Shown here one piece after another: positions 1,762-12,158 of a DNA stretch of 12,319 nt; the stretch's first letter is position 1, and each line of letters starts with the position of its first letter. A program made the translations under genes and the position numbers. The DNA is taken from the NCBI GenBank assembly GCA_964388265.1, contig CAYLXZ010000023.1, positions 1 to 12,319 of the forward strand. Direction: 5' to 3'. The notes under the pieces are model-generated. The model was not told the DNA's origin, did not search any database, and was given only the letters and a program-made list of their open reading frames with translations. Source of the stretch: Candidatus Micrarchaeota archaeon (GTDB lineage: Archaea > B1Sed10-29).

Positions 1762-1782
1762 CCTGCAAAAAGTTTTTTATTC
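1762..1782 (+). promoter_or_regulatory. Conserved BRE/TATA-variant promoter, copy 1
   Basis: CCTGCAAAAAGTTTTTTATTC, 29 nt before ATG 1812. Near-identical copies at 3321, 8794 and 10915. Confidence 0.7.
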
Positions 1783-1811
1783 ATCCTGTACATAATCTAA
1801 ACGTGTTAACC

Positions 1812-2399
1812 ATGAGTAAGAAAGAGAAAAGAACCCAGGAAAAAAAGAAAAAATCCGCTGAGAAAGATAAGAGAGAATGGTTCGAAAAAAGAGCGGGAAA
1901 GGAAAAAGGAAAACAGATACAGCTACCGATCGAAGCAGATAGCAAGTCATTAAGCGAAGAATGGATGAGAGAAGAAATAGAAAAACTAAGAGAGAAGTTT
2001 AAAGAAACTGAAGAAAGCTCGGAACTGAAAGAAGGAAGATTCAAAGAAGAAATCAAAGGATTCATGGAAAAATTCAGAGGAAGAGGAGGAAGAATAGTAA
2101 TAAACGAAGAAGAACTCGAAAAAGAGGTCGAATCCCTAAGAAAAGAACTAATGGACAGAGCAGAAAAGATAAAAGAATCAGAAAAAAGACTTAAAAACAT
2201 ATCCCAAGACAAAAAAAGCACCCTAGACTCCAGGAAAGTCTTAAATAATACCTTAAAAACTAGTAGAAAAAACTTCGTGCTTGCAGAGAAAAAACTAGAA
2301 GCACTGAAAGACTTCAGAGAAAAAGTATTTCCAGAGAAAAATCTAGAGAAGAAACTAGATTTAGAACGACCTGAAAAGGAACTGAAAAAGAAAAAATAG
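1812..2399 (+). CDS. K/E-rich orphan coiled-coil protein with polybasic N-terminus (195 aa)
   Basis: Purine-rich coding strand. ATG 1812 is preferred over GTG 1803 because the GTG sits within the SD-like ACGTG and the promoter spacing fits. No recognisable domain. Confidence 0.75.
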   Translation: MSKKEKRTQEKKKKSAEKDKREWFEKRAGKEKGKQIQLPIEADSKSLSEEWMREEIEKLREKFKETEESSELKEGRFKEEIKGFMEKFRGRGGRIVINEEELEKEVESLRKELMDRAEKIKESEKRLKNISQDKKSTLDSRKVLNNTLKTSRKNFVLAEKKLEALKDFREKVFPEKNLEKKLDLERPEKELKKKK

Positions 2400-2432
2400 A
2401 GTTTCACTCTCCACCAAAAGGATGATGAATCC

Positions 2433-3110
2433 ATGAAGAAAAGTAAAGAAGATAGATACTGGGAGATAGATTTCTTAAGAGGAATTGCAGTAATACTCAT
2501 GATAGGGTTCCACTTTCTCTTTGACCTACATCTATTCAACTTAACTGATTTTAGAGTTCCAAACGAATTCGCCTACCTAATCGCAACAATGTTCCTATTG
2601 CTTGTGGGGATATCTTACAACATAAGCTACAGCAGAGGCCACGACGGAAAATACTACTTGAAGAGAGGGTTGAAGATCTTCTCTTGGGGTTTAATCATCA
2701 CAGGGATAACCTGGATAGCCTTCCCAGAGAACGTTATAGTCTTCGGTATCCTACACCTCATAGGGATCTCAGTTATCCTTGTCTATCCACTAATGGAATA
2801 TAAACACCTTAACTTAGTTCTAGGATCCATTTCAATCGCTCTGGGAGTAGTTTTCTACAGTTCTATTCAGAGTTTAATTCATTTCCCAACATTCGACTAC
2901 TTCCCTCTATTACCATGGATAGGAGTAGTCCTAATAGGGTTATGGCTAGGTAAAATACTGTATCCAGATGGAGAAAGAAGATTCAACATCCCTGAAGGAT
3001 ATAATTCCTTTATCAAAGGTTTCTGTCTTCTAGGTAGGAACTCTCTGTTGATTTACCTGGTTCACCAACCAGTGCTCGTAGCTGCTATATTAGCATTGTT
3101 GAATCTATGA
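2433..3110 (+). CDS. DUF1624 / heparan-alpha-glucosaminide N-acetyltransferase-like membrane protein
   Basis: RYWEIDFLRGIAVILMIGFH, FGILHLIG, DYFPLLPW and LGRNSLLIYLVHQP motifs. Confidence 0.88.
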   Translation: MKKSKEDRYWEIDFLRGIAVILMIGFHFLFDLHLFNLTDFRVPNEFAYLIATMFLLLVGISYNISYSRGHDGKYYLKRGLKIFSWGLIITGITWIAFPENVIVFGILHLIGISVILVYPLMEYKHLNLVLGSISIALGVVFYSSIQSLIHFPTFDYFPLLPWIGVVLIGLWLGKILYPDGERRFNIPEGYNSFIKGFCLLGRNSLLIYLVHQPVLVAAILALLNL

Positions 3111-3155
3111 AGAAATCCACTTAGATTTATAAAGATTGAATAGATTACTTTACAT

Positions 3156-3293
3156 ATGGATCTTTCAAAACTCGGATACCTAGGATTCCTAGGGTTCTCA
3201 GGATTCCTCGGGTTCATAGGAGAACCCTGGATGTACAACCTATTCTTCCTATTCTTCCTGTTCTTCCTAGGTTTCCTGCCAGAGAATAAATAA
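3156..3293 (+). CDS. Small hydrophobic membrane peptide, 45 aa (resembles the DUF3796 N-terminus)
   Basis: Translated by hand: MDLSKLGYLGFLGFSGFLGFIGEPWMYNLFFLFFLFFLGFLPENK. TATA (TTTATAAA at 3126-3133) lies about 22 nt upstream, consistent with a leaderless transcript. Wobble positions vary among the repeated codons. Confidence 0.72.
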   Translation: MDLSKLGYLGFLGFSGFLGFIGEPWMYNLFFLFFLFFLGFLPENK

Positions 3294-3320
3294 ACAAGAA
3301 ACACAGCGAAACAGAAAATT

Positions 3321-3340
3321 CTTACAAAAGTTTTTTATTC
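3321..3340 (+). promoter_or_regulatory. Conserved BRE/TATA-variant promoter, copy 2
   Basis: CTTACAAAAGTTTTTTATTC, 31 nt before ATG 3372. Confidence 0.68.
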
Positions 3341-3371
3341 ACTCTACCTATAATATCTACAGGTGCATGGA

Positions 3372-4127
3372 ATGGTTAAGAAACCTGAAGATAAGAAGAA
3401 AAAAATCGAGGAAGCCAAGAAGAGAAAGAATAAAGAGAGACAGAGATGGGAGAAGGTGAAGAAGCAAGATGAGAAACTAGGAGAAGCCAAAGCCATACTA
3501 CCTTCACCATACGAAGGAGAAAGACTGATAATGAGAGAAAGAAAAGGAGAAGAAGCAATAGAGATAAATATGGTTAGAGAAAACACCGAAGGAGAGAAAG
3601 AAAGAGTTGGAAAAACAGTTGTAAAGAAGAAAGGAGAAAGAAAAGGAGGAAAAGAAGAATCCTATGAAGTGAGATCCGTGGAAGTGAAAGAACCCTACAG
3701 AAGATCCAACATAGCCACATCCATGGAATCAATCGCAAGAAAAGCCGTTAAGGAAGATGCTGGGAAAAAGAAACCTCTCTACGAGTTCGAGTTAACCGAG
3801 AAAGGAAAGAAATTCATGGAAAACAGAGGAATGGATGAAGAGAATGTGAAGCAAGCAGTAGAAAATAAGTTAATAAACCCGGAGAAGCTGGAAGAACAAG
3901 AAATATACATCAAACAAGGAAAAGAAGAAAAAGCAATAGAACCAAAGGAGGCTGCAGAGCAGATAATGAAAGGTAAAGAGATTGAAACCATGATTGAGAA
4001 AGGAGAAATACAGAAAAGCAACTACCAAGAGGTAATGGAGAAACTTAAAGATAAAGGAGAAAATATGAAGGCCTATAGAGTGAAAGGGAAGATAGAGAAG
4101 AAAGACAGCGGGGAATTAAACCTTTGA
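3372..4127 (+). CDS. K/E-rich protein with a central GNAT-like acetyltransferase domain (251 aa)
   Basis: AGGTG SD at 3361-3365 favours ATG 3372. VRSVEVKEPYRRSNIATSM resembles GNAT motif A, and LTEKGKKFMENRGM resembles motif B. Confidence 0.65.
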   Translation: MVKKPEDKKKKIEEAKKRKNKERQRWEKVKKQDEKLGEAKAILPSPYEGERLIMRERKGEEAIEINMVRENTEGEKERVGKTVVKKKGERKGGKEESYEVRSVEVKEPYRRSNIATSMESIARKAVKEDAGKKKPLYEFELTEKGKKFMENRGMDEENVKQAVENKLINPEKLEEQEIYIKQGKEEKAIEPKEAAEQIMKGKEIETMIEKGEIQKSNYQEVMEKLKDKGENMKAYRVKGKIEKKDSGELNL

Positions 4128-4131
4128 AAGG

Positions 4132-4482
4132 TCAAGACTTCAGTTTCTTTTCGAGTTTTTTAATTTCTTCTTCTTTTTCTTCGATTTCTTGCTTTAATTC
4201 AAAGCATTCTCTTGTTGACTTATTTCTTATCATCTCTTCTGAAAAATTTCTTTCTTCTTTCTTTTTTAGGGTACCGAGCTCTTCAGATGCTTTGTGTTTC
4301 TCCATCAATTTCTTTCTTTTTTCTTGTAATTCTTCTTTGAGTTTTTTTAGTTTCTTTTTCTTCTGTTTCTTACCTCTTTTCAGCTCTTCGTATGTTTTTC
4401 CTGCTTTTCTTCCCTTTGGATGGATCTCTCCCTGCATGTCTGCTTGTTTCTTCTTTTTCTTTTTTTCATTGGACACAGGCAT
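4132..4482 (-). CDS. K/E-rich orphan coiled-coil protein (116 aa)
   Basis: Purine-rich coding strand, GTGG SD-like site, upstream TTTTTAAA box and a polybasic N-terminus. Convergent with 3372..4127. Confidence 0.7.
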   Translation of the reverse strand: MPVSNEKKKKKKQADMQGEIHPKGRKAGKTYEELKRGKKQKKKKLKKLKEELQEKRKKLMEKHKASEELGTLKKKEERNFSEEMIRNKSTRECFELKQEIEEKEEEIKKLEKKLKS

Positions 4483-4529
4483 TTGACCACTACTTAAAGT
4501 AGGTTTTTCTTCTTTAAAAATAGATTGTT

Positions 4530-5084
4530 TTACAGGTTGTTTTGAACTTCTTTTATTAATTTCTCTGGTTCTTTATCCGCGTTTATAACAAGGTCCGCGT
4601 GTTTCTTTGTTGGTTTTATGTATTTCTCGTATGCGGGATACACTTGTTCGTGGAAGTACTCTTCATCTGTGTCTATGTTTCCTTCTCTGAATCTTTTCAT
4701 CCGTCTCTTTAGCTGTTCTTGTTTCGGTATATCTAGAAATATTGATTTATCAAGTATCTTCCGGATTCCTTCATGGTGTAGTATCATGAAACCATCCACT
4801 AGGATTGTTGAAACAGGTTCAATGGTTTTTTCTCTGGTTATTTCGTTCTTGATTTTATCGTATCTTGGAATTGTTACTTTTTTGCCTTTTTTAAGTTTCT
4901 GTAGAGCTTTGTGGGCTTGTTTGAACTTGATTGCGTCTGGGTGATCGTAGTTGCCTTCCTTTCCCCCTGGTTTGTAGAAGTTGTCGAGGGAGAGTCTTTT
5001 TACTCCGTTTTGTTCTTCTAGCGTTCTGCATACCGTGCTTTTACCCGAGCACGATGGACCGGTTACTCCTATCAGTTTAACCAT
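4530..5084 (-). CDS. udk: Uridine kinase (P-loop nucleoside kinase)
   Basis: IGVTGPSCSGKST Walker A, LDNFY, NYDHPDA, IPRYD, and YIKPTKKHAD motifs. Confidence 0.88.
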   Translation of the reverse strand: MVKLIGVTGPSCSGKSTVCRTLEEQNGVKRLSLDNFYKPGGKEGNYDHPDAIKFKQAHKALQKLKKGKKVTIPRYDKIKNEITREKTIEPVSTILVDGFMILHHEGIRKILDKSIFLDIPKQEQLKRRMKRFREGNIDTDEEYFHEQVYPAYEKYIKPTKKHADLVINADKEPEKLIKEVQNNL

Positions 5085-5106
5085 TGTAATGATAAGTGGG
5101 GTCGTG

Positions 5107-5123
5107 GAATAAAAAATTTCCAG
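5107..5123 (-). promoter_or_regulatory. BRE/TATA-variant promoter for leaderless udk
   Basis: Minus-strand CTGGAAATTTTTTATTC lies 22 nt before ATG 5084. It shares the TTTTTTATTC core with the orphan promoters. Confidence 0.55.
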
Positions 5124-5166
5124 TATTTAAAAAGTCTGATTAATTCTCTTTGGGTTTATTTGGATT

Positions 5167-5757
5167 TTATTCTTTTTCTTTTTTGAATCCGCCTTTTTCT
5201 AGTCTTTCTTTTACTTTTTCTAGGTTAGGAGGAACTTTAAATTTGGCTTGATGAATTTCTTCTTTTGATGTTTCTCTAGCTCTCTTTAAGGCTCTGTTGA
5301 GTGTTTTCTCCGGGATTTCTAGTTTTTGTTTTAGTTTTTGTTTTGTTATGTCTTCATTTGCTCTGAGTGTGTCTGCTATGTATCTTTCTATGGATTTATT
5401 TAGTGTTTTTTCGGATACGTCTAGTTTCTCTTCTAGTTCTTGTTTTGTTATGTCTTCGTTTACTTCGAGTGTGTCTGCTATGTATCTTTCCTGGAGTTTT
5501 TCATTGTATTCATCGATTTTATCTTTATCTGCTTTCTCGAGCACGTTTTTGAGAGATTCTTCATTTATCTTCTTAGGTGGTTTTATTCCAGCTTCTTTTA
5601 GAGCTTTCTTCACATGATGTTTCTTGGTTAGTGAGCTTGGTTTATTTTTCGGTGACATTCCATGGATCCATTTTGGCCCTGCGGTTGCTTTGGATTCTTC
5701 TCCTCTTTTTTTAAGAGTTTTTAGTTTTCTTTTCTTTTCCTGGGATTTTTTCTCCAT
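5167..5757 (-). CDS. K/E-rich protein with two tandem 34-aa helix-turn-helix-like repeats
   Basis: RYIADTLEVNEDITKQELEEKLDVSEKTLNKSIE / RYIADTLRANEDITKQKLKQKLEIPEKTLNRALK match the HTH pattern 'IT..EL...L.VS..T'. AGGAG SD upstream. Confidence 0.72.
   Translation of the reverse strand: MEKKSQEKKRKLKTLKKRGEESKATAGPKWIHGMSPKNKPSSLTKKHHVKKALKEAGIKPPKKINEESLKNVLEKADKDKIDEYNEKLQERYIADTLEVNEDITKQELEEKLDVSEKTLNKSIERYIADTLRANEDITKQKLKQKLEIPEKTLNRALKRARETSKEEIHQAKFKVPPNLEKVKERLEKGGFKKEKE
5290..5490. repeat. Intragenic 102-bp tandem duplication (two copies)
   Basis: TTTTGTTATGTCTTC...GAGTGTGTCTGCTATGTATCTTTC starts at both 5341 and 5443 (offset 102). Boundaries are approximate. Confidence 0.85.
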
Positions 5758-5768
5758 TGAGGTCTCTC

Positions 5769-6509
5769 CTATTCTTGCGTGGTGTTTTTAACTGTGCATG
5801 TTCCGTTTATGTTTGTGCAGTTTCCTGTTGGTTCTCCTACAACTACTTGGGGGCAGATTGGGTTTTCCGGGCATTCTATAACTGTTTCTTCCGTGTTCAC
5901 GCATTCCCAGTTTGCTCCTGCTTGGGGTGGACAGCAGTTGGTGCTTACCCATCCGCAGCTCTCGTTCTCCGTGGTTTCTTTGACTATTGTTCTTTCCAGT
6001 TTTTTCTCTGTCCAGTTGTTTTTTTCCAGGTAGCTTATCTCGCATCCGTCTTTGGCACCGTATGTGAATTCTCCGTGGGGGCAGGTTAGTTCTTTGTATT
6101 GCTGTGTGCATGTCTGTCCTCTGGATTGGTTCACTGCTTTTCTTATATCTTCTTTGCATCCTTCATCTACATCTGTTTCGTTTAGATGTAGGAAAATGGA
6201 TGTGAGTGTTTTATCTTCGTTCATCGTGATGGTTGTTTCTTTCTCTAGGGTTTCGTGGTCTCCTTCCCATCTTAGGAACATCCATTCTTTCCCTGGTTCT
6301 GCTGTGATGGTTGCTTCTTCTCCTTCTTCGTAGGTGTGATTTCCTTTCATGGGGTTGGTTGAGCCTTCTCCTTCTGTATTTATTGTTAGGGTGTATTCAT
6401 CTGTTTCTGTTTCGTTTCCCGGAGTCATTTCTCCGGATATGCATCCTGTGGCCATTAGAATCCCTAGAGACAGTATGAATCCAACTGCGATGAGTTTATC
6501 ATGGTTCAT
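5769..6509 (-). CDS. Secreted, probably lipid-anchored surface protein: InlB B-repeat-like beta-grasp domain plus Cys-rich domains
   Basis: Signal peptide ending in ATGC. YTLTINTEGEGSTNP..G..TYEEGEEATITAEP...MFLRWEGD matches the divergent InlB B-repeat pattern. A 4-Cys region and an 8-Cys C-terminal region follow, with many N-x-S/T sequons. Confidence 0.75.
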   Translation of the reverse strand: MNHDKLIAVGFILSLGILMATGCISGEMTPGNETETDEYTLTINTEGEGSTNPMKGNHTYEEGEEATITAEPGKEWMFLRWEGDHETLEKETTITMNEDKTLTSIFLHLNETDVDEGCKEDIRKAVNQSRGQTCTQQYKELTCPHGEFTYGAKDGCEISYLEKNNWTEKKLERTIVKETTENESCGWVSTNCCPPQAGANWECVNTEETVIECPENPICPQVVVGEPTGNCTNINGTCTVKNTTQE

Positions 6510-6634
6510 GGTTGATCACATTGAAAATAAGATTCTATAGATTTAAATAATTAATTCTTAATGGTGTTCCCTTACCTCTAATGTAAAAACTTTTTTTTAA
6601 GTCTAAGTGACTAAAGAAAAACGAGGGGGGTTAA

Positions 6635-6870
6635 ATGAGCAAGAGATCTAAAGAAAGGGAGAAGGCAAAAAAGCGGAAGAAAAAGAAGAAAAAAGAGAAA
6701 AAAAGTTCCCATCTCTAAAAATAAGAAATGAAAGACCCAAGGTACTGGAACTAGTAGACACAGGGAAAATACAGAAAAACAACTATAAAGAAGTCTGTGA
6801 AAAACTCAGAGAAGAAGGAATGAAAGCAGATGCATCTCAATTGGAAGCAGAGATGAAAAAACACCACTAA
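6635..6870 (+). pseudogene. Frameshifted K/E-rich orphan gene (pseudogene, recoded gene or assembly error)
   Basis: GAGGGGGG SD and ATG 6635 give 27 aa ending at stop 6716-6718. The -1 frame is open from 6652 to 6870 and encodes GKIQKNNYKEVCEKL, similar to the C-terminus of 3372..4127. Confidence 0.62.
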
Positions 6871-6912
6871 AGAAATTTAAATTCATCAAAGCTAGATTTG
6901 ATCCCTGTTCTC

Positions 6913-7170
6913 TTATCCACTGGTCCTTTCTTCTATTCTCTTCAACAGATCTTGTATCTTCTCGTATTCCAACATTAATTGATTTGCTTCTTTATCTTTT
7001 GCTTTTGGATTTCCCTCTATTCCTTTCATATGGGTTTCAAGCTGTTCATTTATTTTTTCTAAACGTTCCTTTAGTTCCTCTTTCCTTGAATCTAGTTTCT
7101 GGAAGTTTCTATTCTTCACCATCTTATCGATTTTTTTCCTGTTTAAATCAGTTTTATTTTTTAGAGCCAT
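6913..7170 (-). CDS. Small K/E-rich helical orphan protein (85 aa)
   Basis: GAGGTG SD favours ATG 7170. GAAAGTTATTTAAATA promoter at about 7210-7225. Confidence 0.68.
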   Translation of the reverse strand: MALKNKTDLNRKKIDKMVKNRNFQKLDSRKEELKERLEKINEQLETHMKGIEGNPKAKDKEANQLMLEYEKIQDLLKRIEERTSG

Positions 7171-7356
7171 ACATAACACCTCTTATTGCGTATGTATTTA
7201 AGAGCACTCTATTTAAATAACTTTCTTATTTAACTCTGAGAAAATTCAGACACTACATTCCCTTAATCATTTATATTCAAAAACCTTTTATTTAACCAGA
7301 TATAATAGATGCCGTAGCCCTTGACCTGAAAAACTATAAAACCTAAACGTGGTTCC

Positions 7357-7689
7357 ATGTATATAAAGGAAAGACTTAAAGAGATGAGGAAAAGAGCTCG
7401 TGAGAAAGAAAAAAAGGAAATTGAACGAAAAGCAGAAGCTAGAGATCTCCCTATACTCAAGAAGAAAAGAAAGACTAATAAGGAGAAGTCAGGAGAAAGG
7501 AAATCTAAAGCAGATAAAGAAACATCGATACTACTAGCTCCCATGGGACCGAACGAACTTGAGAAAGCGGAAGATTTCCTGAGAAGAAGCAAGATAGACC
7601 ATGAGACTTTAAACCGTTCTCCACAGGAGAGACCTGTCATCAAGGTCAAGAAAGGAGACTACGAGAAACTGATGAAAGGAAAGAGATGA
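7357..7689 (+). CDS. Orphan protein with a charged N-terminal half and a small DUF2007-like alpha/beta C-terminal domain
   Basis: AAACGTGG SD-like site. ELEKAEDFLRRSKID...PVIKVKKGDYEKL resembles the DUF2007 pattern (tentative). Confidence 0.65.
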   Translation: MYIKERLKEMRKRAREKEKKEIERKAEARDLPILKKKRKTNKEKSGERKSKADKETSILLAPMGPNELEKAEDFLRRSKIDHETLNRSPQERPVIKVKKGDYEKLMKGKR

Positions 7690-7706
7690 ATTTCCATTAC
7701 ATTTCT

Positions 7707-8750
7707 CTATTTAAATGGATTTAACTTTTCCAGAATGCCTTTATCTTCTTTTTTCTTTCTTTTTCTTGTTTGAAGGTTTTCTTCATCTTTCTTTAGAGTT
7801 TTAAAGGTTTCTAATAGTGCTTCGTAATCTGCTTTTTCTTTGCTCATTCCGTGATCCTGTTTCTTTTGCTTTTTACCTCTCCATGTTTCACGGAATTTTC
7901 GATCTTGTTTTTCAAGGTTTCTTATCTTTTTTTCCGCTTGTTTTGCTTTTTTGTATTCTTCTTTGCTGTCGAAGTGTTCTTCTGGGTTTTTTCTTTTTTC
8001 CTTGGCTTTTTTTAGTTCTTTGTATCTTTGCGCTGTCTTTGTGTTGAACTCGAAGTGTCTTGTTAGCTGTTCCATTGGGTTGTATGTTTCTTTTACCTGT
8101 TCTGATTGCTCTGCTTTTTCGTGGAGGTCTTTCTTTTCTAGGTGTTCTCTCTTGATTTTGATGTTCTTGTTCTCTTTTTCTATTTCTTCTTTTAGTTTGT
8201 GGTATACTGGTGTGTGTCCTGCTCCTGCTGCTATGTATATTTTTTTACCTGGGTTTTCCTTTATGATTTTCTTCAGTTCTTTGGCTCTTGTTTTATTTCT
8301 TTCTTTGTTGGCTTCTGCTTTTACCTGGGCTGCTTCTTTGGTTTTCCCTAGGTTTCGGTAGATGTTTGCGGTTGATTTTTCTAGAGTTAATTCTGATTTT
8401 GATACTCCTGCTCCTTTGATTTCTTTGTCTTTTCCTTTTTTCTGCATTTCTTTCAGGGTTTTGAACAGTTTTTCTGAGTACTCTGGGAAGTTTGTTTTCT
8501 CAGCTAGTTCTTTGAGCTCTTTCTCTGTCTCTGTTTTTTTCACTTTCTCAAGGGTTTCGGGAGGCATCTCTGGTATTATTATATCTGCTTCTTTCATTCT
8601 CTTCTTTGCTTTTTCAACTTTCTGTGGTGCGTGTTTTTCAAATCCTATCTCTACCTCGGTTTTTTTCCTCTTTTCCTCTTCTCTGGTTTTTTCTTTGGAT
8701 CTGGATTTTTCTCTTTGTTTCTTTTTCTTTTGATTTGTTCTCTTTCCCAT
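7707..8750 (-). CDS. K/E-rich protein with a putative TraB/Tiki/EreA/ChaN-superfamily domain
   Basis: IGFEKH(H40), ADIIIPE(E61), ERN(R151) and KIYIAAGAGH(H179) appear in the order typical of the superfamily. AGGAG SD upstream. Confidence 0.65.
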   Translation of the reverse strand: MGKRTNQKKKKQREKSRSKEKTREEEKRKKTEVEIGFEKHAPQKVEKAKKRMKEADIIIPEMPPETLEKVKKTETEKELKELAEKTNFPEYSEKLFKTLKEMQKKGKDKEIKGAGVSKSELTLEKSTANIYRNLGKTKEAAQVKAEANKERNKTRAKELKKIIKENPGKKIYIAAGAGHTPVYHKLKEEIEKENKNIKIKREHLEKKDLHEKAEQSEQVKETYNPMEQLTRHFEFNTKTAQRYKELKKAKEKRKNPEEHFDSKEEYKKAKQAEKKIRNLEKQDRKFRETWRGKKQKKQDHGMSKEKADYEALLETFKTLKKDEENLQTRKRKKKEDKGILEKLNPFK

Positions 8751-8793
8751 GTTTTCTCCTGTGTATCATTACGTTCTCGGGTAATTAAAAGTA

Positions 8794-8814
8794 CCTGCAA
8801 AAAGGTTTTTATTC
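8794..8814 (+). promoter_or_regulatory. Conserved BRE/TATA-variant promoter, copy 3
   Basis: CCTGCAAAAAGGTTTTTATTC, 31 nt before ATG 8846. It sits back-to-back with the minus-strand CTTTTAAT box for the gene starting at 8750. Confidence 0.68.
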
Positions 8815-8845
8815 CCTGGGTGATGTAAATAAGCTAAGGGAAAAC

Positions 8846-9145
8846 ATGGCTAAGAAAAAGATCAATAGAAGAGAGAAAGAAAAGAAGGAAAGCGATGAAG
8901 TTAAGGATCTTCTGGAAGAATTAGAGGAATTGAAAGAAGTTAAAGGAGCCGAGAAAGAGCAGAAGGAGAAGAAGCAGAGAGATGAAAGAAGAGAAGCAGT
9001 TAATATGATTAGCGGTATCTTGAAACAGGCGGAGAAACTGGAAGAGAAAGGAGAAACCAAGGAAGCCGAAGAGAAGAAAGAGCTAGCTAAGAAACTGATT
9101 GATATGTCATTCGGAGGCAAGATCTCGAAGAAAGAGAAGTCTTAG
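8846..9145 (+). CDS. K/E-rich helical orphan protein (99 aa)
   Basis: Purine-rich coding strand, conserved promoter, AAGGGA SD-like site and a polybasic N-terminus. Confidence 0.72.
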   Translation: MAKKKINRREKEKKESDEVKDLLEELEELKEVKGAEKEQKEKKQRDERREAVNMISGILKQAEKLEEKGETKEAEEKKELAKKLIDMSFGGKISKKEKS

Positions 9146-9165
9146 GTTCTTTGTCTTTGTTTCTC

Positions 9166-9200
9166 TTTATATCTTTCGGTTTACCGGAAAGATTTATAAA
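9166..9200. promoter_or_regulatory. Imperfect inverted repeat between convergent genes; the right arm is a canonical BRE-TATA
   Basis: TTTATATCTTTCGG-TTTA-CCGGAAAGATTTATAAA. Confidence 0.45.
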
Positions 9201-9240
9201 TAAAAGAAATTTGAATCGAAAGTTGCTCTGGATATAAGAT

Positions 9241-9254
9241 TTTAGGCACTACAT
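9241..9254 (+). repeat. 14-bp direct repeat, copy 1
   Basis: TTTAGGCACTACAT, identical at 10881-10894. Contains the toxin stop codon. Confidence 0.6.
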
Positions 9255-9737
9255 TTTATCTATTTCTTTAATTATCTTGCTGTATACTTGGTTCTTTAGG
9301 TTCATTCCTTCTTGGACTAAGTTGTATAGTATTTCTTTTGCTTCTTCTTTGTCTATGTGGTTGTTTTCCACGGATTTAAGGATTAGTGTGGTTAGCCAGT
9401 GGCATTCTATGTTCTTCATTCTCGCGATCTGTATTAGGGCTTTATCATTGGTTAGGAGCACTTCGTTTTCTTGTTGTGCGAGCAGTATTAGTGAAGCGTC
9501 TGCTTTTGTTATTCCTTCTAGTTCCGCGGTTTCTTGAGTTTTTTCTGTGTCTATTTTCTTTGTTTGGATGTTTTTGAAGAGTTTTTTGAGTTCTGAGGTT
9601 CCTTTTCTGCCTTTGCCTTGTTCTATTACTTCTTTCTTTATCTTCGGGGTGGCTTTCAGTTCTCTAAGTTGGTTTAGAAGGTCTAGGTTCCCTGTTCGTG
9701 CTAGTGGAATCAGGGTCGAGGAGTCTAGTATTGTCAT
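9249..9737 (-). CDS. vapC: PIN-domain VapC-like toxin (DUF3368 type)
   Basis: ILDSSTLI, 'KKEVI', ADASLI and LLTNDK supply the acidic PIN residues, followed by a C-terminal helical extension. The start overlaps the antitoxin stop. Confidence 0.85.
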   Translation of the reverse strand: MTILDSSTLIPLARTGNLDLLNQLRELKATPKIKKEVIEQGKGRKGTSELKKLFKNIQTKKIDTEKTQETAELEGITKADASLILLAQQENEVLLTNDKALIQIARMKNIECHWLTTLILKSVENNHIDKEEAKEILYNLVQEGMNLKNQVYSKIIKEIDKM

Positions 9738-10030
9738 TATATCCTCTCTAGGTCTTTTTCCAGTTCTTCTTCTGAGTATCCTATGTCTATTCCTTTTTCG
9801 GATGCTAGGTTTATCATTTCTATGTAGGTTGTTTTCGCTATCTCTGCTGCTTTTCTAATGGTTACTTTGTTTTGTTTAAGGAGCTGTAGGGCTTTCTTTT
9901 TTCTTCTTTCTTCCAGTGCTTTTTTCAGGAGCTTTCTTATTACTTCGGATTGTTTCTTGTTCTCTTTCTCTTCTATTTGTTTGAGGGAGTTGTAGTCTTC
10001 TTCAGGTACTCTTGTTGTTATTGTTTTCAC
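9737..10030 (-). CDS. UPF0175-family antitoxin with N-terminal CopG-like ribbon-helix-helix (97 aa)
   Basis: GTG start at 10030 with GGTGGT SD at 10035-10040. KTITTRVPEE..SEVIRKLL is RHH-like, and KVTIRKAAEIA matches UPF0175. Confidence 0.85.
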   Translation of the reverse strand: MKTITTRVPEEDYNSLKQIEEKENKKQSEVIRKLLKKALEERRKKKALQLLKQNKVTIRKAAEIAKTTYIEMINLASEKGIDIGYSEEELEKDLERI

Positions 10031-10039
10031 AAAAACCAC

Positions 10040-10078
10040 CGTTACGTATGTAATCGTTACGATACAATATAAGTTTAA
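10040..10078 (-). promoter_or_regulatory. TA operon promoter with a probable autorepression operator
   Basis: Minus-strand AAACTTATAT TATA at about 10067-10076. Alternating TTAC/GTAA/TTAC half-sites in CGTTACGTATGTAATCGTTACG lie over the expected transcription start. Confidence 0.6.
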
Positions 10079-10291
10079 CGGTGCTCCACCCATTGCTTCC
10101 GACACCATGGAAAACATAGATACATACAAAGCGTTCTCAATGAAATGAATTTCCCAACTCCAGAGAGTTAACCTGAGTTAATATCTCCCTTCCTCCTCTT
10201 TCTCTTCACTCATACTGATCACATACAGAGACACGGAGACAAAGAATAGAAAGATAAACCTGTAGAGTAAGAATAGATAACAGGGGTAAAG

Positions 10292-10810
10292 ATGAGTGAA
10301 GAAGATTCAGATCTTGAGGAGATAAGGGGGTTGGCGAAGGAAGAGCTATCTCCAGGTCTCTTGGAGCACGTGGAGAAGGTCGTGGAGAAGGCGGAATGGC
10401 TCCTGGAATCCTATCCAGAGGCAGATGAAGAGGTAGTTAAATCCGCATGTTGGCTACATGACATAGTGCACCAATCCATGGGTTACAGCGGAGAGGAACA
10501 TAATCTAGAGTCCGCTGAAAAAGCCGGGAAGATTATGAAAGAGCTAGAAATGGATCAAGATAAGATAGATAAGGTAATTGAATGTATAGAGAGCAATAGA
10601 ACAACGACTCCTCAGGAACCCACCACCATTGAAGCTAGGATAGTCGCATCCGCGGATAATCTCTCTCATTTCGATTCCTATGAAACCCTAGTACAGATTA
10701 AGAGTGAGGAATGGGCTCGGAACAAACTTGAAAGAGATCTAGACTCCGATTTCATGCTACCGGAAGCCAGAGAACACGCAGAAGATAAACTGGAAGAAAT
10801 AAAGAACTAG
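10292..10810 (+). CDS. HD-domain metal-dependent phosphohydrolase
   Basis: EHVEKV, ACWLHDI, EHNLES and EARIVASADNL motifs. GGGGT SD upstream. Confidence 0.85.
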   Translation: MSEEDSDLEEIRGLAKEELSPGLLEHVEKVVEKAEWLLESYPEADEEVVKSACWLHDIVHQSMGYSGEEHNLESAEKAGKIMKELEMDQDKIDKVIECIESNRTTTPQEPTTIEARIVASADNLSHFDSYETLVQIKSEEWARNKLERDLDSDFMLPEAREHAEDKLEEIKN

Positions 10811-10880
10811 AGGGCTGGTGAACCCATACAAAGAGATTGAAGATTTCAACGCTCTGCAGGGCTATATGTATATGGATTGA

Positions 10881-10894
10881 TTTAGGCACTACAT
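10881..10894 (+). repeat. 14-bp direct repeat, copy 2
   Basis: TTTAGGCACTACAT, identical to 9241-9254. Confidence 0.6.
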
Positions 10895-10914
10895 CTTCTT
10901 TCCATCTATAAATT

Positions 10915-10934
10915 CCTGCAAAAGTTTTTTATTC
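10915..10934 (+). promoter_or_regulatory. Conserved BRE/TATA-variant promoter, copy 4
   Basis: CCTGCAAAAGTTTTTTATTC, 30 nt before ATG 10965. Confidence 0.7.
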
Positions 10935-10964
10935 CCAAGCCACCTAATACAAACGTGATTTGAG

Positions 10965-12158
10965 ATGGGTAAAAAATCAAAAACGAGTAAAGACAAGGAG
11001 GCTGAGAAAACAAAGAGAAAGCTAGCAGCACCGAAGAGGAAGAAGCCACAGAAGCTCACTGTGGATAAAATGAAGAAAAAAGTAAAGGACATGAAGAAAG
11101 AAAAAAGAGAAAAACTAAAGAAAAGGGTCAAAGGATACGAATACATACCTCTAAAGATACTGATAAACAACCCTGAGAAATCAATAGAGCAAATTAAAAA
11201 AGAAGCGGAGAGAAAGGTCCGAGAGGAGATAGGAGAAGAAGGAAAACTGATCATAGATGAATCCATCCTAGGTGGAGAGATAACAGACAAGGACCTCAAA
11301 AAGATAAAGAAAGCACACAAAAAAGGAATCCTCAAACCAATAAAAGAAAAACTAAAGAAAGAGAAGGGTCAAATCAACCCAGGAGACCTCCTGGACGAAA
11401 TAGAAAAGAAAAAAGAATCTGAATGGGGAGCACTTAAAAAAGATAAAAGAAAAGGAAACCAACAAAACATAGTAGAAGAAGCTAAAGAGATAGCTAAAGC
11501 CTATCCGAATAAAACTATTGAAGAGATCATAGATAAAACCATAGAAACCAAGAAAGGAGAAATAAATAACATAGAGAAGGCTAAAAAGCTCCTTAAAAAA
11601 GAAGAATCACAAAACAGGATAAAAACAGCTCAAAGCGTTGAAAAAATGGATATAGCTGGAGGGAATGTAAAAAGCGAGATCAAAAAAGAGATGCGTAAAA
11701 ACCCTGATAAAAGCATTGAAGAAGTTATAGGATCAATCACAACGAGCGGTGTAGATTACCACAATGAGATAGCTCAAGAAGCTCTTCAAAAGGATGAAGA
11801 GTTCAGAAAAGAGTTAGAGCAAATAAAGGAAGAAGAAAAAAAGAAAAAAGAATCAGACCTCGGAGACCTACAGATGGATAAAAGAAAGAAATCCAAAAAG
11901 AAGGTGGAGGTAGAAGATGAAACATTTAGCAATGCCTCTGAAATGCTGGAAGAAAAAGCCAAAGGAGTAATAAAGAAGAACCCTGAACTAACTCCTAAAG
12001 AAGCTGTTGAAGAAGCAAAATCTAGAATCCCTGAATTCAAAGGCAGAGAACCCAGCTACCCTATCTACGTAAAGGATGTACTAGACACACGATTTAGGGA
12101 AAAACTCAAAGAGATAAAGGAAAAAGCCAAGAAGAAAGAATCCAAGAAAAACAAATAA
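10965..12158 (+). CDS. K/E-rich orphan protein with four dispersed (N/Y)P-x-K-(S/T)-IEE-like helical repeats
   Basis: NNPEKSIEQI, AYPNKTIEEI, KNPDKSIEEV and KNPELTPKEA. Conserved promoter and an AAACGTGA SD-like site. Confidence 0.78.
   Translation: MGKKSKTSKDKEAEKTKRKLAAPKRKKPQKLTVDKMKKKVKDMKKEKREKLKKRVKGYEYIPLKILINNPEKSIEQIKKEAERKVREEIGEEGKLIIDESILGGEITDKDLKKIKKAHKKGILKPIKEKLKKEKGQINPGDLLDEIEKKKESEWGALKKDKRKGNQQNIVEEAKEIAKAYPNKTIEEIIDKTIETKKGEINNIEKAKKLLKKEESQNRIKTAQSVEKMDIAGGNVKSEIKKEMRKNPDKSIEEVIGSITTSGVDYHNEIAQEALQKDEEFRKELEQIKEEEKKKKESDLGDLQMDKRKKSKKKVEVEDETFSNASEMLEEKAKGVIKKNPELTPKEAVEEAKSRIPEFKGREPSYPIYVKDVLDTRFREKLKEIKEKAKKKESKKNK

Follow-up and report, generated by a model that had tools for sequence, protein, structure and literature searches.

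A class of hypercharged proteins with basic ends in a DPANN archaeon: candidate host-directed effectors

The contig CAYLXZ010000023.1 (12,319 nucleotides; this whole stretch is called the window below) carries ten Lys/Glu-rich genes dispersed among housekeeping genes, and the question it raises is whether these genes form a set and, if so, where their products act. A preliminary description had taken them for otherwise unrelated orphans in which a polybasic leader precedes a hidden catalytic or DNA-binding domain, possibly co-regulated substrates of a non-Sec export route in a DPANN-like symbiont. The class is real but heterogeneous, and includes about 30 genes of the genome, about 4% of the genes of this reduced genome. 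Its best reading, held tentatively at somewhat less than an even chance, is that of candidate host-directed effectors forming a lineage-specific, rapidly replaced repertoire.

The genome and the ten genes

The window is the entire contig C23 of the genome G000, which amounts to 725,682 bases in 45 contigs at 82% completeness and yielded 797 genes, including 706 complete proteins, on gene calling. Sequence comparison places G000 among the DPANN archaea, as the preliminary description had supposed: its ribosomal protein L3 is nearest to DPANN sequences (closest relatives 63-75%, Aenigmatarchaeota at most 54%, Micrarchaeota 49%), the POR beta protein of the window is nearest to Woesearchaeota records, and the phylum of G000 counts 24 genomes with a completeness of at least 80%. 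The best DNA match to the window is a sediment metagenome, no RNA data set being listed among the matches. In G001, a genome of the same family, the orthologs of POR and udk are 65-70% identical and keep their order; the contig thus belongs to G000, and contamination is ruled out by this collinearity. The ten genes, named by their start positions with a minus sign for the reverse strand, are as follows (aa, amino acids; HTH, helix-turn-helix; ORF, open reading frame).

1812..2399, forward strand: gene 1812, a 195-aa hypercharged orphan with both ends basic, without a domain or a match in G001
3372..4127, forward strand: gene 3372, 251 aa, with a basic helical leader (~1-36), a predicted GNAT-fold domain (~37-150) and a small helical C-terminal domain
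4132..4482, reverse strand: gene 4482-, a 116-aa hypercharged orphan, not N-biased alone, whose N-terminal module is common to a paralog on contig C5 and a G001 protein
5167..5757, reverse strand: gene 5757-, a 196-aa orphan, basic in its leader, with an HTH-like repeat of 34 residues in tandem
6635..6870, forward strand: gene 6635, frameshifted, with a 27-aa basic ORF (6635-6718) followed by the -1 frame (6661-6870)
6913..7170, reverse strand: gene 7170-, an 85-aa orphan with a basic N-terminus, without a detected domain
7357..7689, forward strand: gene 7357, a 110-aa hypercharged orphan
7707..8750, reverse strand: gene 8750-, a 347-aa putative EreA/ChaN/TIKI-fold hydrolase
8846..9145, forward strand: gene 8846, a 99-aa hypercharged orphan, without a detected domain
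10965..12158, forward strand: gene 10965, a 397-aa hypercharged orphan in which a short NP-containing repeat occurs four times

Nine of these genes are intact at the starts previously given, and only 6635 is broken. The nine intact products are indeed highly charged (46-58% charged residues), and no hydrophobic segment of a Sec, Tat or class III signal peptide was found in them by 17-residue hydropathy, the maximum of which lies between -0.85 and 0.34.

Basic ends as a property of the class

The Lys/Arg-rich leaders stand as a trait of the class, not of each member. With a criterion of at least eight Lys or Arg within residues 2-21, 48 of the 706 complete proteins of G000 are included, and eight of the 18 on the window contig. 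When single proteins are shuffled, only 3372 and 8750- are N-biased at p<0.05, and no individual N-terminal bias appears in 4482-, 7357 and 8846 (p 0.56, 0.29 and 0.27, respectively). The Pfam scan covered the window genes, 107 others with high charge or at least seven Lys/Arg and, from the other 571, a sample of 150 drawn at random, the denominators being scaled from this sample. On these estimated denominators, a basic N-terminus occurs in 14 of ~491 Pfam-positive proteins (2.8%) versus 33 of ~114 soluble Pfam-negative ones (29%), so that housekeeping proteins of this genome are not equally basic.

A second grouping, blind to the ends, was made by body charge and absence of matches in other families. 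The 47 lineage-specific hypercharged proteins so obtained carry a mean net charge of +3.40 in their first 20 residues, +0.04 per 20 residues in the body and +1.91 in the last 20 (end versus body, p=1.9e-7 for the N-terminus and 1.6e-4 for the C-terminus); the N-terminal bias is absent from 254 ordinary conserved proteins (p=0.45). Basic N- and C-termini recur in all four genomes analysed (G000, G001, G015 and G011). The 14 lineage-specific proteins of G011 are basic at their ends (p=0.013 and 0.0009), but strong leaders are few in that genome (5 of 55). The DNA fetched for comparison comprised 674 kb of G001 (a genome 91% complete), 399 of ~700 kb of G015 and 400 of 569 kb of G011; because these genomes were only partly fetched, some conserved genes fall into the lineage-specific group. 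The control of free-living size, G036, is too small a piece (60 kb) and not Lys-rich (5.8% Lys). The fetched pieces of another genome, G002 (contigs C1-C20, L119-L138; 91 kb), average 51% GC and 4.9% Lys, unlike its family relatives, and this assembly is possibly heterogeneous in composition.

The whole proteome of G000 contains 11.3% Glu and 11.0% Lys, which lends some weight to an alternative in which young or decaying genes of this lineage, Lys/Glu-rich and under weak constraint, generally have basic ends. The class would then be a by-product, with enzymes in a few members by chance and common promoters through duplication of 5' cassettes. The two-ended bias in all four genomes, the frameshift in 6635, the sharing of modules and 5' regions and the lack of a domain in most members would all fit such genes. 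The composition of the leaders argues otherwise. In 48 hypercharged orphans, Lys is enriched 1.64-fold and Arg 1.4-fold in the leader, whereas Glu falls to 0.64-fold and Asn to 0.88-fold, and AAA supplies 61% of Lys codons in leaders versus 71% in the body (p=6e-4); 278 conserved genes show no comparable shift. A-rich DNA is thereby ruled out as the source of the leaders, because the equally A-rich Glu falls and the AAA share of Lys codons drops. This combination of residue and codon shifts thus points to selection for positive charge at the protein level. The generic explanation also has against it that lineage-specific proteins whose charge is ordinary are not significantly biased in G000 (n=93, p=0.16) and that a family of ~50 homologs in which the catalytic residues are invariant retains its basic ends (see 8750- below); it is considered improbable.

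Rapid replacement between related genomes

Matches in G001 were found for 9 of 34 basic-leader Pfam-negative proteins, versus 43 of 65 Pfam-negative proteins without such a leader and 142 of 177 Pfam-positive ones, and the Pfam-positive proteins common to both genomes average 63% identity. The orphans are thus not ordinary conserved proteins. The region of G001 with POR, a small peptide and udk is syntenic with the window but occupied by unrelated class members, and the class set of this sister genome is mostly different (kinases, JAB, GNAT). In G000, members lie on 16 contigs, mostly as stand-alone genes, with a GC content at third codon positions (GC3) of 0.35 versus 0.39 in conserved genes. 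They are clustered, with 16 close pairs versus 5.7 expected (p=0.001), or versus 6.9 when placed in non-conserved slots (p=0.005); clustering in G001 is not significant (p=0.08).

This turnover bears on the alternative that the proteins act inside the symbiont, where basic ends would bind its own DNA, RNA, ribosomes or anionic membrane, in the manner of ribosomal-protein tails, and the enzymes would be lineage-specific regulators, possibly switched together at one stage of the life cycle. Conservation would be expected of regulators in a reduced genome, whereas only 9 of 34 are matched in a genome whose Pfam-positive proteins average 63% identity, and syntenic slots hold unrelated members. Several observations are on the side of such an internal role. 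The Pfam-positive proteins with basic N-termini include the RNA binders L2, L3, L21e, AlaRS, eRF1 and Trm5, the repeat of 5757- is HTH-like, and the distribution of candidate ATPases gives no link between the class and a pump. Moreover, a short amphipathic C-terminal tail, which we take to resemble a membrane-targeting helix, ends otherwise unrelated members: three of G000 (8750-, its paralog and one more) and, in G001, a protein bearing a JAB-like motif. A hidden Markov model of this tail retrieved just its four seeds. Overall, an internal role is judged rather unlikely, with an appreciable chance.

Shared modules and the range of payloads

The ten genes are not otherwise unrelated, contrary to the preliminary description. 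The -1 frame of 6635, which follows A-runs, carries a C-terminal domain common to 3372 (14 of 37 residues identical, E=3e-7), 8750- has a paralog on contig C5, and the N-terminal module of 4482- also occurs in a C5 gene and in a G001 gene. The repeat of 10965 recurs in a second member of the class, encoded on contig C6 (domain E 7.7e-4; 0 matches in reversed sequences), and 10965 has no Pfam, NCBIfam or Atlas match. Regarding 6635 itself, a Logan contig of run X1 over 6260-7001 shows 0 differences and 0 gaps relative to the window, probably representing the same data. The A-AAA-AAG word near 6667-6673 is presumably a slippery motif, and the gene may be either a pseudogene or a slippage-read gene.

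The tandem 34-residue repeat of 5757- is plain, whereas its previous naming as a tandem HTH is borderline: HTH_11 gives E=2.3e-5 and 24.6 bits versus a cut-off of 25, and HTH_24 (22.4 versus 21.9) and GntR (21.4 versus 27) have no stretch that passes alone. The DUF2007 likeness proposed for 7357 was not recovered, this protein having 0 Pfam families at E<=0.1, DUF2007 included, and 0 in NCBIfam. No domain was found by Pfam or NCBIfam in 1812, 4482-, 7170-, 7357 and 8846, and the NCBIfam scan of the ten window genes returned nothing but a weak L19e score for 6661-6867.

Outside the window, two class members of G001 carry Pkinase (E 7.6e-7 and 2.9e-8), with related kinases in G002 and G003, and a third gives Prok-JAB at E 3.7e-5, just under the cut-off. 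One member of G000 matches Methyltransf_11 (E 5.8e-9) and one of G015 is a GNAT; 20 of the 27 scanned proteins have no family at E<=0.001. Taken with the EreA/TIKI and GNAT folds of the window, the predicted kinase, JAB and methyltransferase domains suggest payloads of protein-modifying types, which count in favor of host-directed effectors. By eye, an HExxH motif is seen in one G001 member. Two basic-leader proteins with a JAB-like motif lie at L006:777-1382 and L089:12699-13484 of G001, one of them directly upstream of an EreA-like homolog.

The putative hydrolase 8750-

The preliminary description of 8750- as TraB/Tiki/EreA-like is upheld at the level of the fold. The protein consists of a basic leader (1-30), a catalytic domain (~30-210), a helical C-terminal half and the amphipathic tail. 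Its structure model has a predicted local distance difference test score (pLDDT) of 78.6, with ~51 in the leader. Fold matches include ChaN (Z 10.2, root-mean-square deviation (rmsd) 4.2, 164 residues aligned), EreC (10.0), HopBA1 (9.7) and a BcR136-type protein (9.3), followed by PMT (8.3) and RRSP (7.3). No Pfam TraB/PrgY/GumN (PF01963) match supports it, with 0 families for 8750- and one distant homolog at 22.3 versus 26.8 bits, and a sequence search of the PDB gave no match (best E 0.03).

An alignment of 109 homologs, made after 14 outside 240-450 aa had been dropped, shows conservation of H40 (106/109), E61 (109/109), R151 (98/109) and H179 (107/109), and E38 is kept in 33 of 48 close homologs. 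PMC6254334 describes a site of two His and two Glu plus an Arg in TIKI-family hydrolases, including the effector RRSP. The site of 8750- was equated with that motif by order and spacing, not by superposition. Since the conserved residues follow this order, 8750- is probably an active peptidase or esterase.

Homologs occur in 7 of 41 genomes, with none in 10 distant ones; the family counts 122 representatives in a library at 50% identity, and the word-index homolog search returned the C5 paralog only. Charge is retained in the leaders as their sequence drifts: the 48 closest EreA-like homologs carry a net charge of +2.8 in the first 10 residues, +3.3 in the last 10 and +0.46 per 10 in the body, whereas 65 distant ones have -0.2 and +0.9 at the two ends. 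An EreA-like domain is also present inside the giant proteins P0180 (5465 aa, source label Elusimicrobiota) and P0195 (2229 aa).

The GNAT-fold protein 3372

The GNAT-like payload proposed earlier for 3372 holds up in the structure model (pLDDT 69), which predicts a GNAT fold spanning residues 37-132 (the model range ends near 132). Of its 50 fold matches, 49 are acetyltransferases, the best being HAT1 (Z 9.6, rmsd 2.5, 94 aligned), and the Atlas assigns it to GNAT clusters at 0.94, 10 of 10 in one clan. There is no Pfam match to 3372 itself, and its G001 ortholog (28% identical) scores 20.6 for Acetyltransf_1 versus a cut-off of 20.7. Orthologs exist in G001 and G004, and the leader of the G001 ortholog is longer and different in sequence, still basic; the word-index search gave one relative at 57%. 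Y109 and R110 are invariant in four sequences, whereas the usual glycine of the motif is replaced in the window protein, so that the acetyl-CoA motif looks degenerate.

Promoters and translation starts

Four promoter regions of the window were delimited, and their upstream motif is taken, from established knowledge, to be an archaeal B recognition element (BRE) followed by a TATA box.

1762..1782, forward strand: TGCA-extended BRE and TATA promoter of 1812
3321..3340, forward strand: BRE and TATA promoter of 3372, almost the same as the promoters of 1812 and 10965
8783..8814, both directions: divergent, overlapping promoters of 8750- and 8846, with one palindromic TGCA in common
10915..10934, forward strand: TGCA-extended BRE and TATA promoter of 10965

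Within 70 nucleotides (nt) upstream of a start, CTGCAAAA(A)G occurs at only four genes of G000, all class members. The TGCA-extended promoter precedes 4 of 23 class genes versus 0 of 377 others in G000, a circular count as the pattern was derived there, and 3 of 20 class genes versus 3 of 375 others in G001 (p=0.002), where two of the three non-class genes are basic-leadered as well. The co-regulation suggested in the preliminary description is plausible for a subset of the class; shared ancestry of 5' cassettes would explain the promoter sharing equally well. Motif discovery over the whole class yielded a generic TATA box only, and a DNA pattern combining promoter and basic start had matches in G000 only, patterns of the start alone lacking the specificity for surveying genomes. 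G000 has two TFB paralogs (L024:14740-15651 and L033:3362-4270, on contigs C5 and C10), which could underlie a promoter subtype.

In 1812, 3372, 4482-, 8750-, 8846 and 10965 the distance of the T-box upstream of the ATG is 38-41 nt, versus 30-33 nt in msrQ, udk and the small peptide, and these distances support leadered mRNAs for the former and leaderless ones for the latter, in agreement with the earlier proposal. The further statement that all ten genes have Shine-Dalgarno (SD) sites does not hold. A match of at least 4 nt to the anti-SD complement is present in six of the ten, the other four having just 3 nt, and SD enrichment is ruled out, because SD sites of at least 5 nt occur in 47% of class genes and 47% of conserved genes.

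Candidate export machinery

G000 has Sec parts (SecDF, SecE and SRP54) and type IV pilus genes (two T2SSE ATPases, two T2SSF and pilins). A DUF87 search returned three loci, HerA and two more, and the two non-HerA DUF87 ATPases score far below the VirB4, TraC and CedD cut-offs. At G000:C2 ~26030-37400 (reverse strand; L015:6243 onward), a 3789-codon frame encodes a surface protein with a C-terminal DUF87 ATPase; the 3061-aa call has a single transmembrane (TM) segment at residue 2662, DUF87 at 2722-2873 and a short helical tail. Strong relatives of this ATPase occur in 3 of 40 other genomes (G008, G035 and G038, with frames of 3996, 4660 and 14695 codons). At G000:C11 10412-14300 (reverse strand; L035), an intein-bearing HerA-like ATPase with a C-terminal HTH is split into two ORFs; it is found in 28 of 30 relatives of the same taxonomic class, and a small gene with 2-3 TM segments adjoins it in several genomes.

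Candidate pumps therefore exist, as the call for a VirB4/pilus-like machine had anticipated, but neither is tied to the class. No complete secretion system was identified in G000 by searching ATPase families, channel subunits not being part of that search. Effectors of type IV secretion bear a positively charged C-terminal signal, and the C-termini of the class agree with it by composition only.

Neighboring genes and a role in conflict

Three neighbors of the class genes deserve mention. At 9249-10030 (reverse strand), a UPF0175 gene and a PIN-like (DUF3368) gene form a pair that is probably a toxin-antitoxin module, the upstream gene having a paralog elsewhere in G000. At 3156-3293, a 45-aa hydrophobic peptide with a G-F-L repeat has a similar peptide at the syntenic spot in G001. 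At 5769-6509 (reverse strand), 11 nt upstream of 5757-, lies a surface protein that resembles a lipoprotein and has a divergent InlB B-repeat as well as a Cys-rich end.

The PIN/UPF0175 pair, together with the ParE-like genes that flank EreA-like homologs, could suggest that the class is not host-directed and serves in conflict with viruses or competitor cells, or that it was captured from viruses. In the Atlas, moreover, the domain of 3372 lies closest to GNAT clusters in which the few members on record are viral. It is nonetheless very unlikely: tblastn with 8750- found no match in phage records, Pfam gave no virus hallmark gene in the window, class GC3 is close to that of conserved genes, and members are spread over 16 contigs.

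Weighing the host-directed reading

In the preferred reading of host-directed effectors, selection would keep the ends of these soluble hypercharged proteins basic, while their middle part can be exchanged (hydrolase, GNAT and HTH-like domains in the window; kinases, JAB and methyltransferase elsewhere). They would be synthesized in the symbiont cytoplasm without a Sec signal and would enter the attached host independently of Sec, through either a cytoplasmic junction or a HerA/VirB4-like ATPase pump. The basic ends may serve as the transfer signal or may dock the proteins on anionic targets (host membrane, DNA or ribosomes), and the enzyme domains would then cleave, acetylate or phosphorylate host components.

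Several results weigh against this reading. Most class members have no recognisable payload, and 7 of the 10 window genes lack a notable family match in Pfam and NCBIfam. The charge bias is two-ended and not N-terminal only, 13 conserved hypercharged proteins also lean slightly basic at the N-terminus relative to the body (p=0.033), and the shared promoter covers a minority of the class. For 8750-, the unrelated methyltransferase CbiF (Z 9.3) comes within 1 Z of the best fold match, Foldseek with the model gave no match at E<=0.001, and many close EreA-like homologs have only ~8 residues ahead of the domain, so that the long leader is largely a trait of this family. As for the pumps, the TraG P-loop family (PF19044) was not found in G000 at its 82% completeness, and the C11 ATPase is nearest to HerA helicases, with a VirB4 model match (E=0.006) far below the cut-off. 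G011 has no detected C11-type ATPase, yet possesses basic-ended lineage-specific proteins. The giant-protein ATPase was not found in five of five same-family genomes, including the 91% complete G001 with its repertoire, a negative behind which an unassembled giant gene remains possible.

A bolder version sees in the class the first recognisable archaeal effector repertoire, with dozens of modular members (protease/esterase, acetyltransferase, kinase, JAB and methyltransferase domains) and a dedicated promoter subtype, pumped by the class-wide HerA/VirB4-like ATPase or by the giant-protein ATPase. This version is doubtful; if true, terminal charge could be used as a rule for predicting DPANN effectors. 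No earlier description of the class was found in the literature searched, the coverage of which was incomplete and without supplements, and PMC12857230 contains 0 occurrences of 'DPANN'. What the analysis yields is a list of candidates that can be filtered, a promoter motif and two proteins whose catalytic sites lend themselves to testing. Were its members confined to the symbiont, the class would still be an unnamed, fast-evolving enzyme class occupying ~4% of the genes of a reduced genome.

Comparison with known systems

Bacterial type III and type IV effector repertoires are made of scattered, fast-turnover genes whose products combine a terminal compositional signal with varied enzyme payloads. 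The class is like them in scatter, turnover, terminal composition and payloads (kinase, acetyltransferase, isopeptidase-like and EreA-fold), and differs in being archaeal, in having both ends basic and in the absence of an identified complete secretion system. By analogy, it would resemble a bacterial effector repertoire in architecture, payloads and turnover while belonging to no defined secretion family.

Among the individual proteins, 3372 shares its predicted fold with GNAT acetyltransferases and differs from them by its basic leader and by a small C-terminal domain that is mobile. Compared with the EreA/ChaN/TIKI/TraB superfamily (ChaN, EreC, HopBA1 and RRSP), 8750- has the same predicted fold over residues 30-210 and the same His-Glu-Arg-His order (PMC6254334), and differs by its basic ends, its helical C-terminal half and the lack of a match to Pfam TraB or another family.

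How DPANN archaea control their hosts is an open question, for which Reva et al. (2023, PMC10266531) propose a secretion 'straw' with unknown cargo: giant surface proteins of nanohaloarchaea with a VirB4/TraG-like ATPase would inject 'yet unknown effectors'. The giant protein of G000 on contig C2 is similar in its large ectodomain, its one TM helix, its C-terminal DUF87 ATPase and its short helical tail, whereas the gene downstream encodes here a 453-aa charged protein without a Pfam match and not a second ATPase. The genes of the window may be candidates for the cargo that the nanohaloarchaeal 'straw', as described there, is missing.

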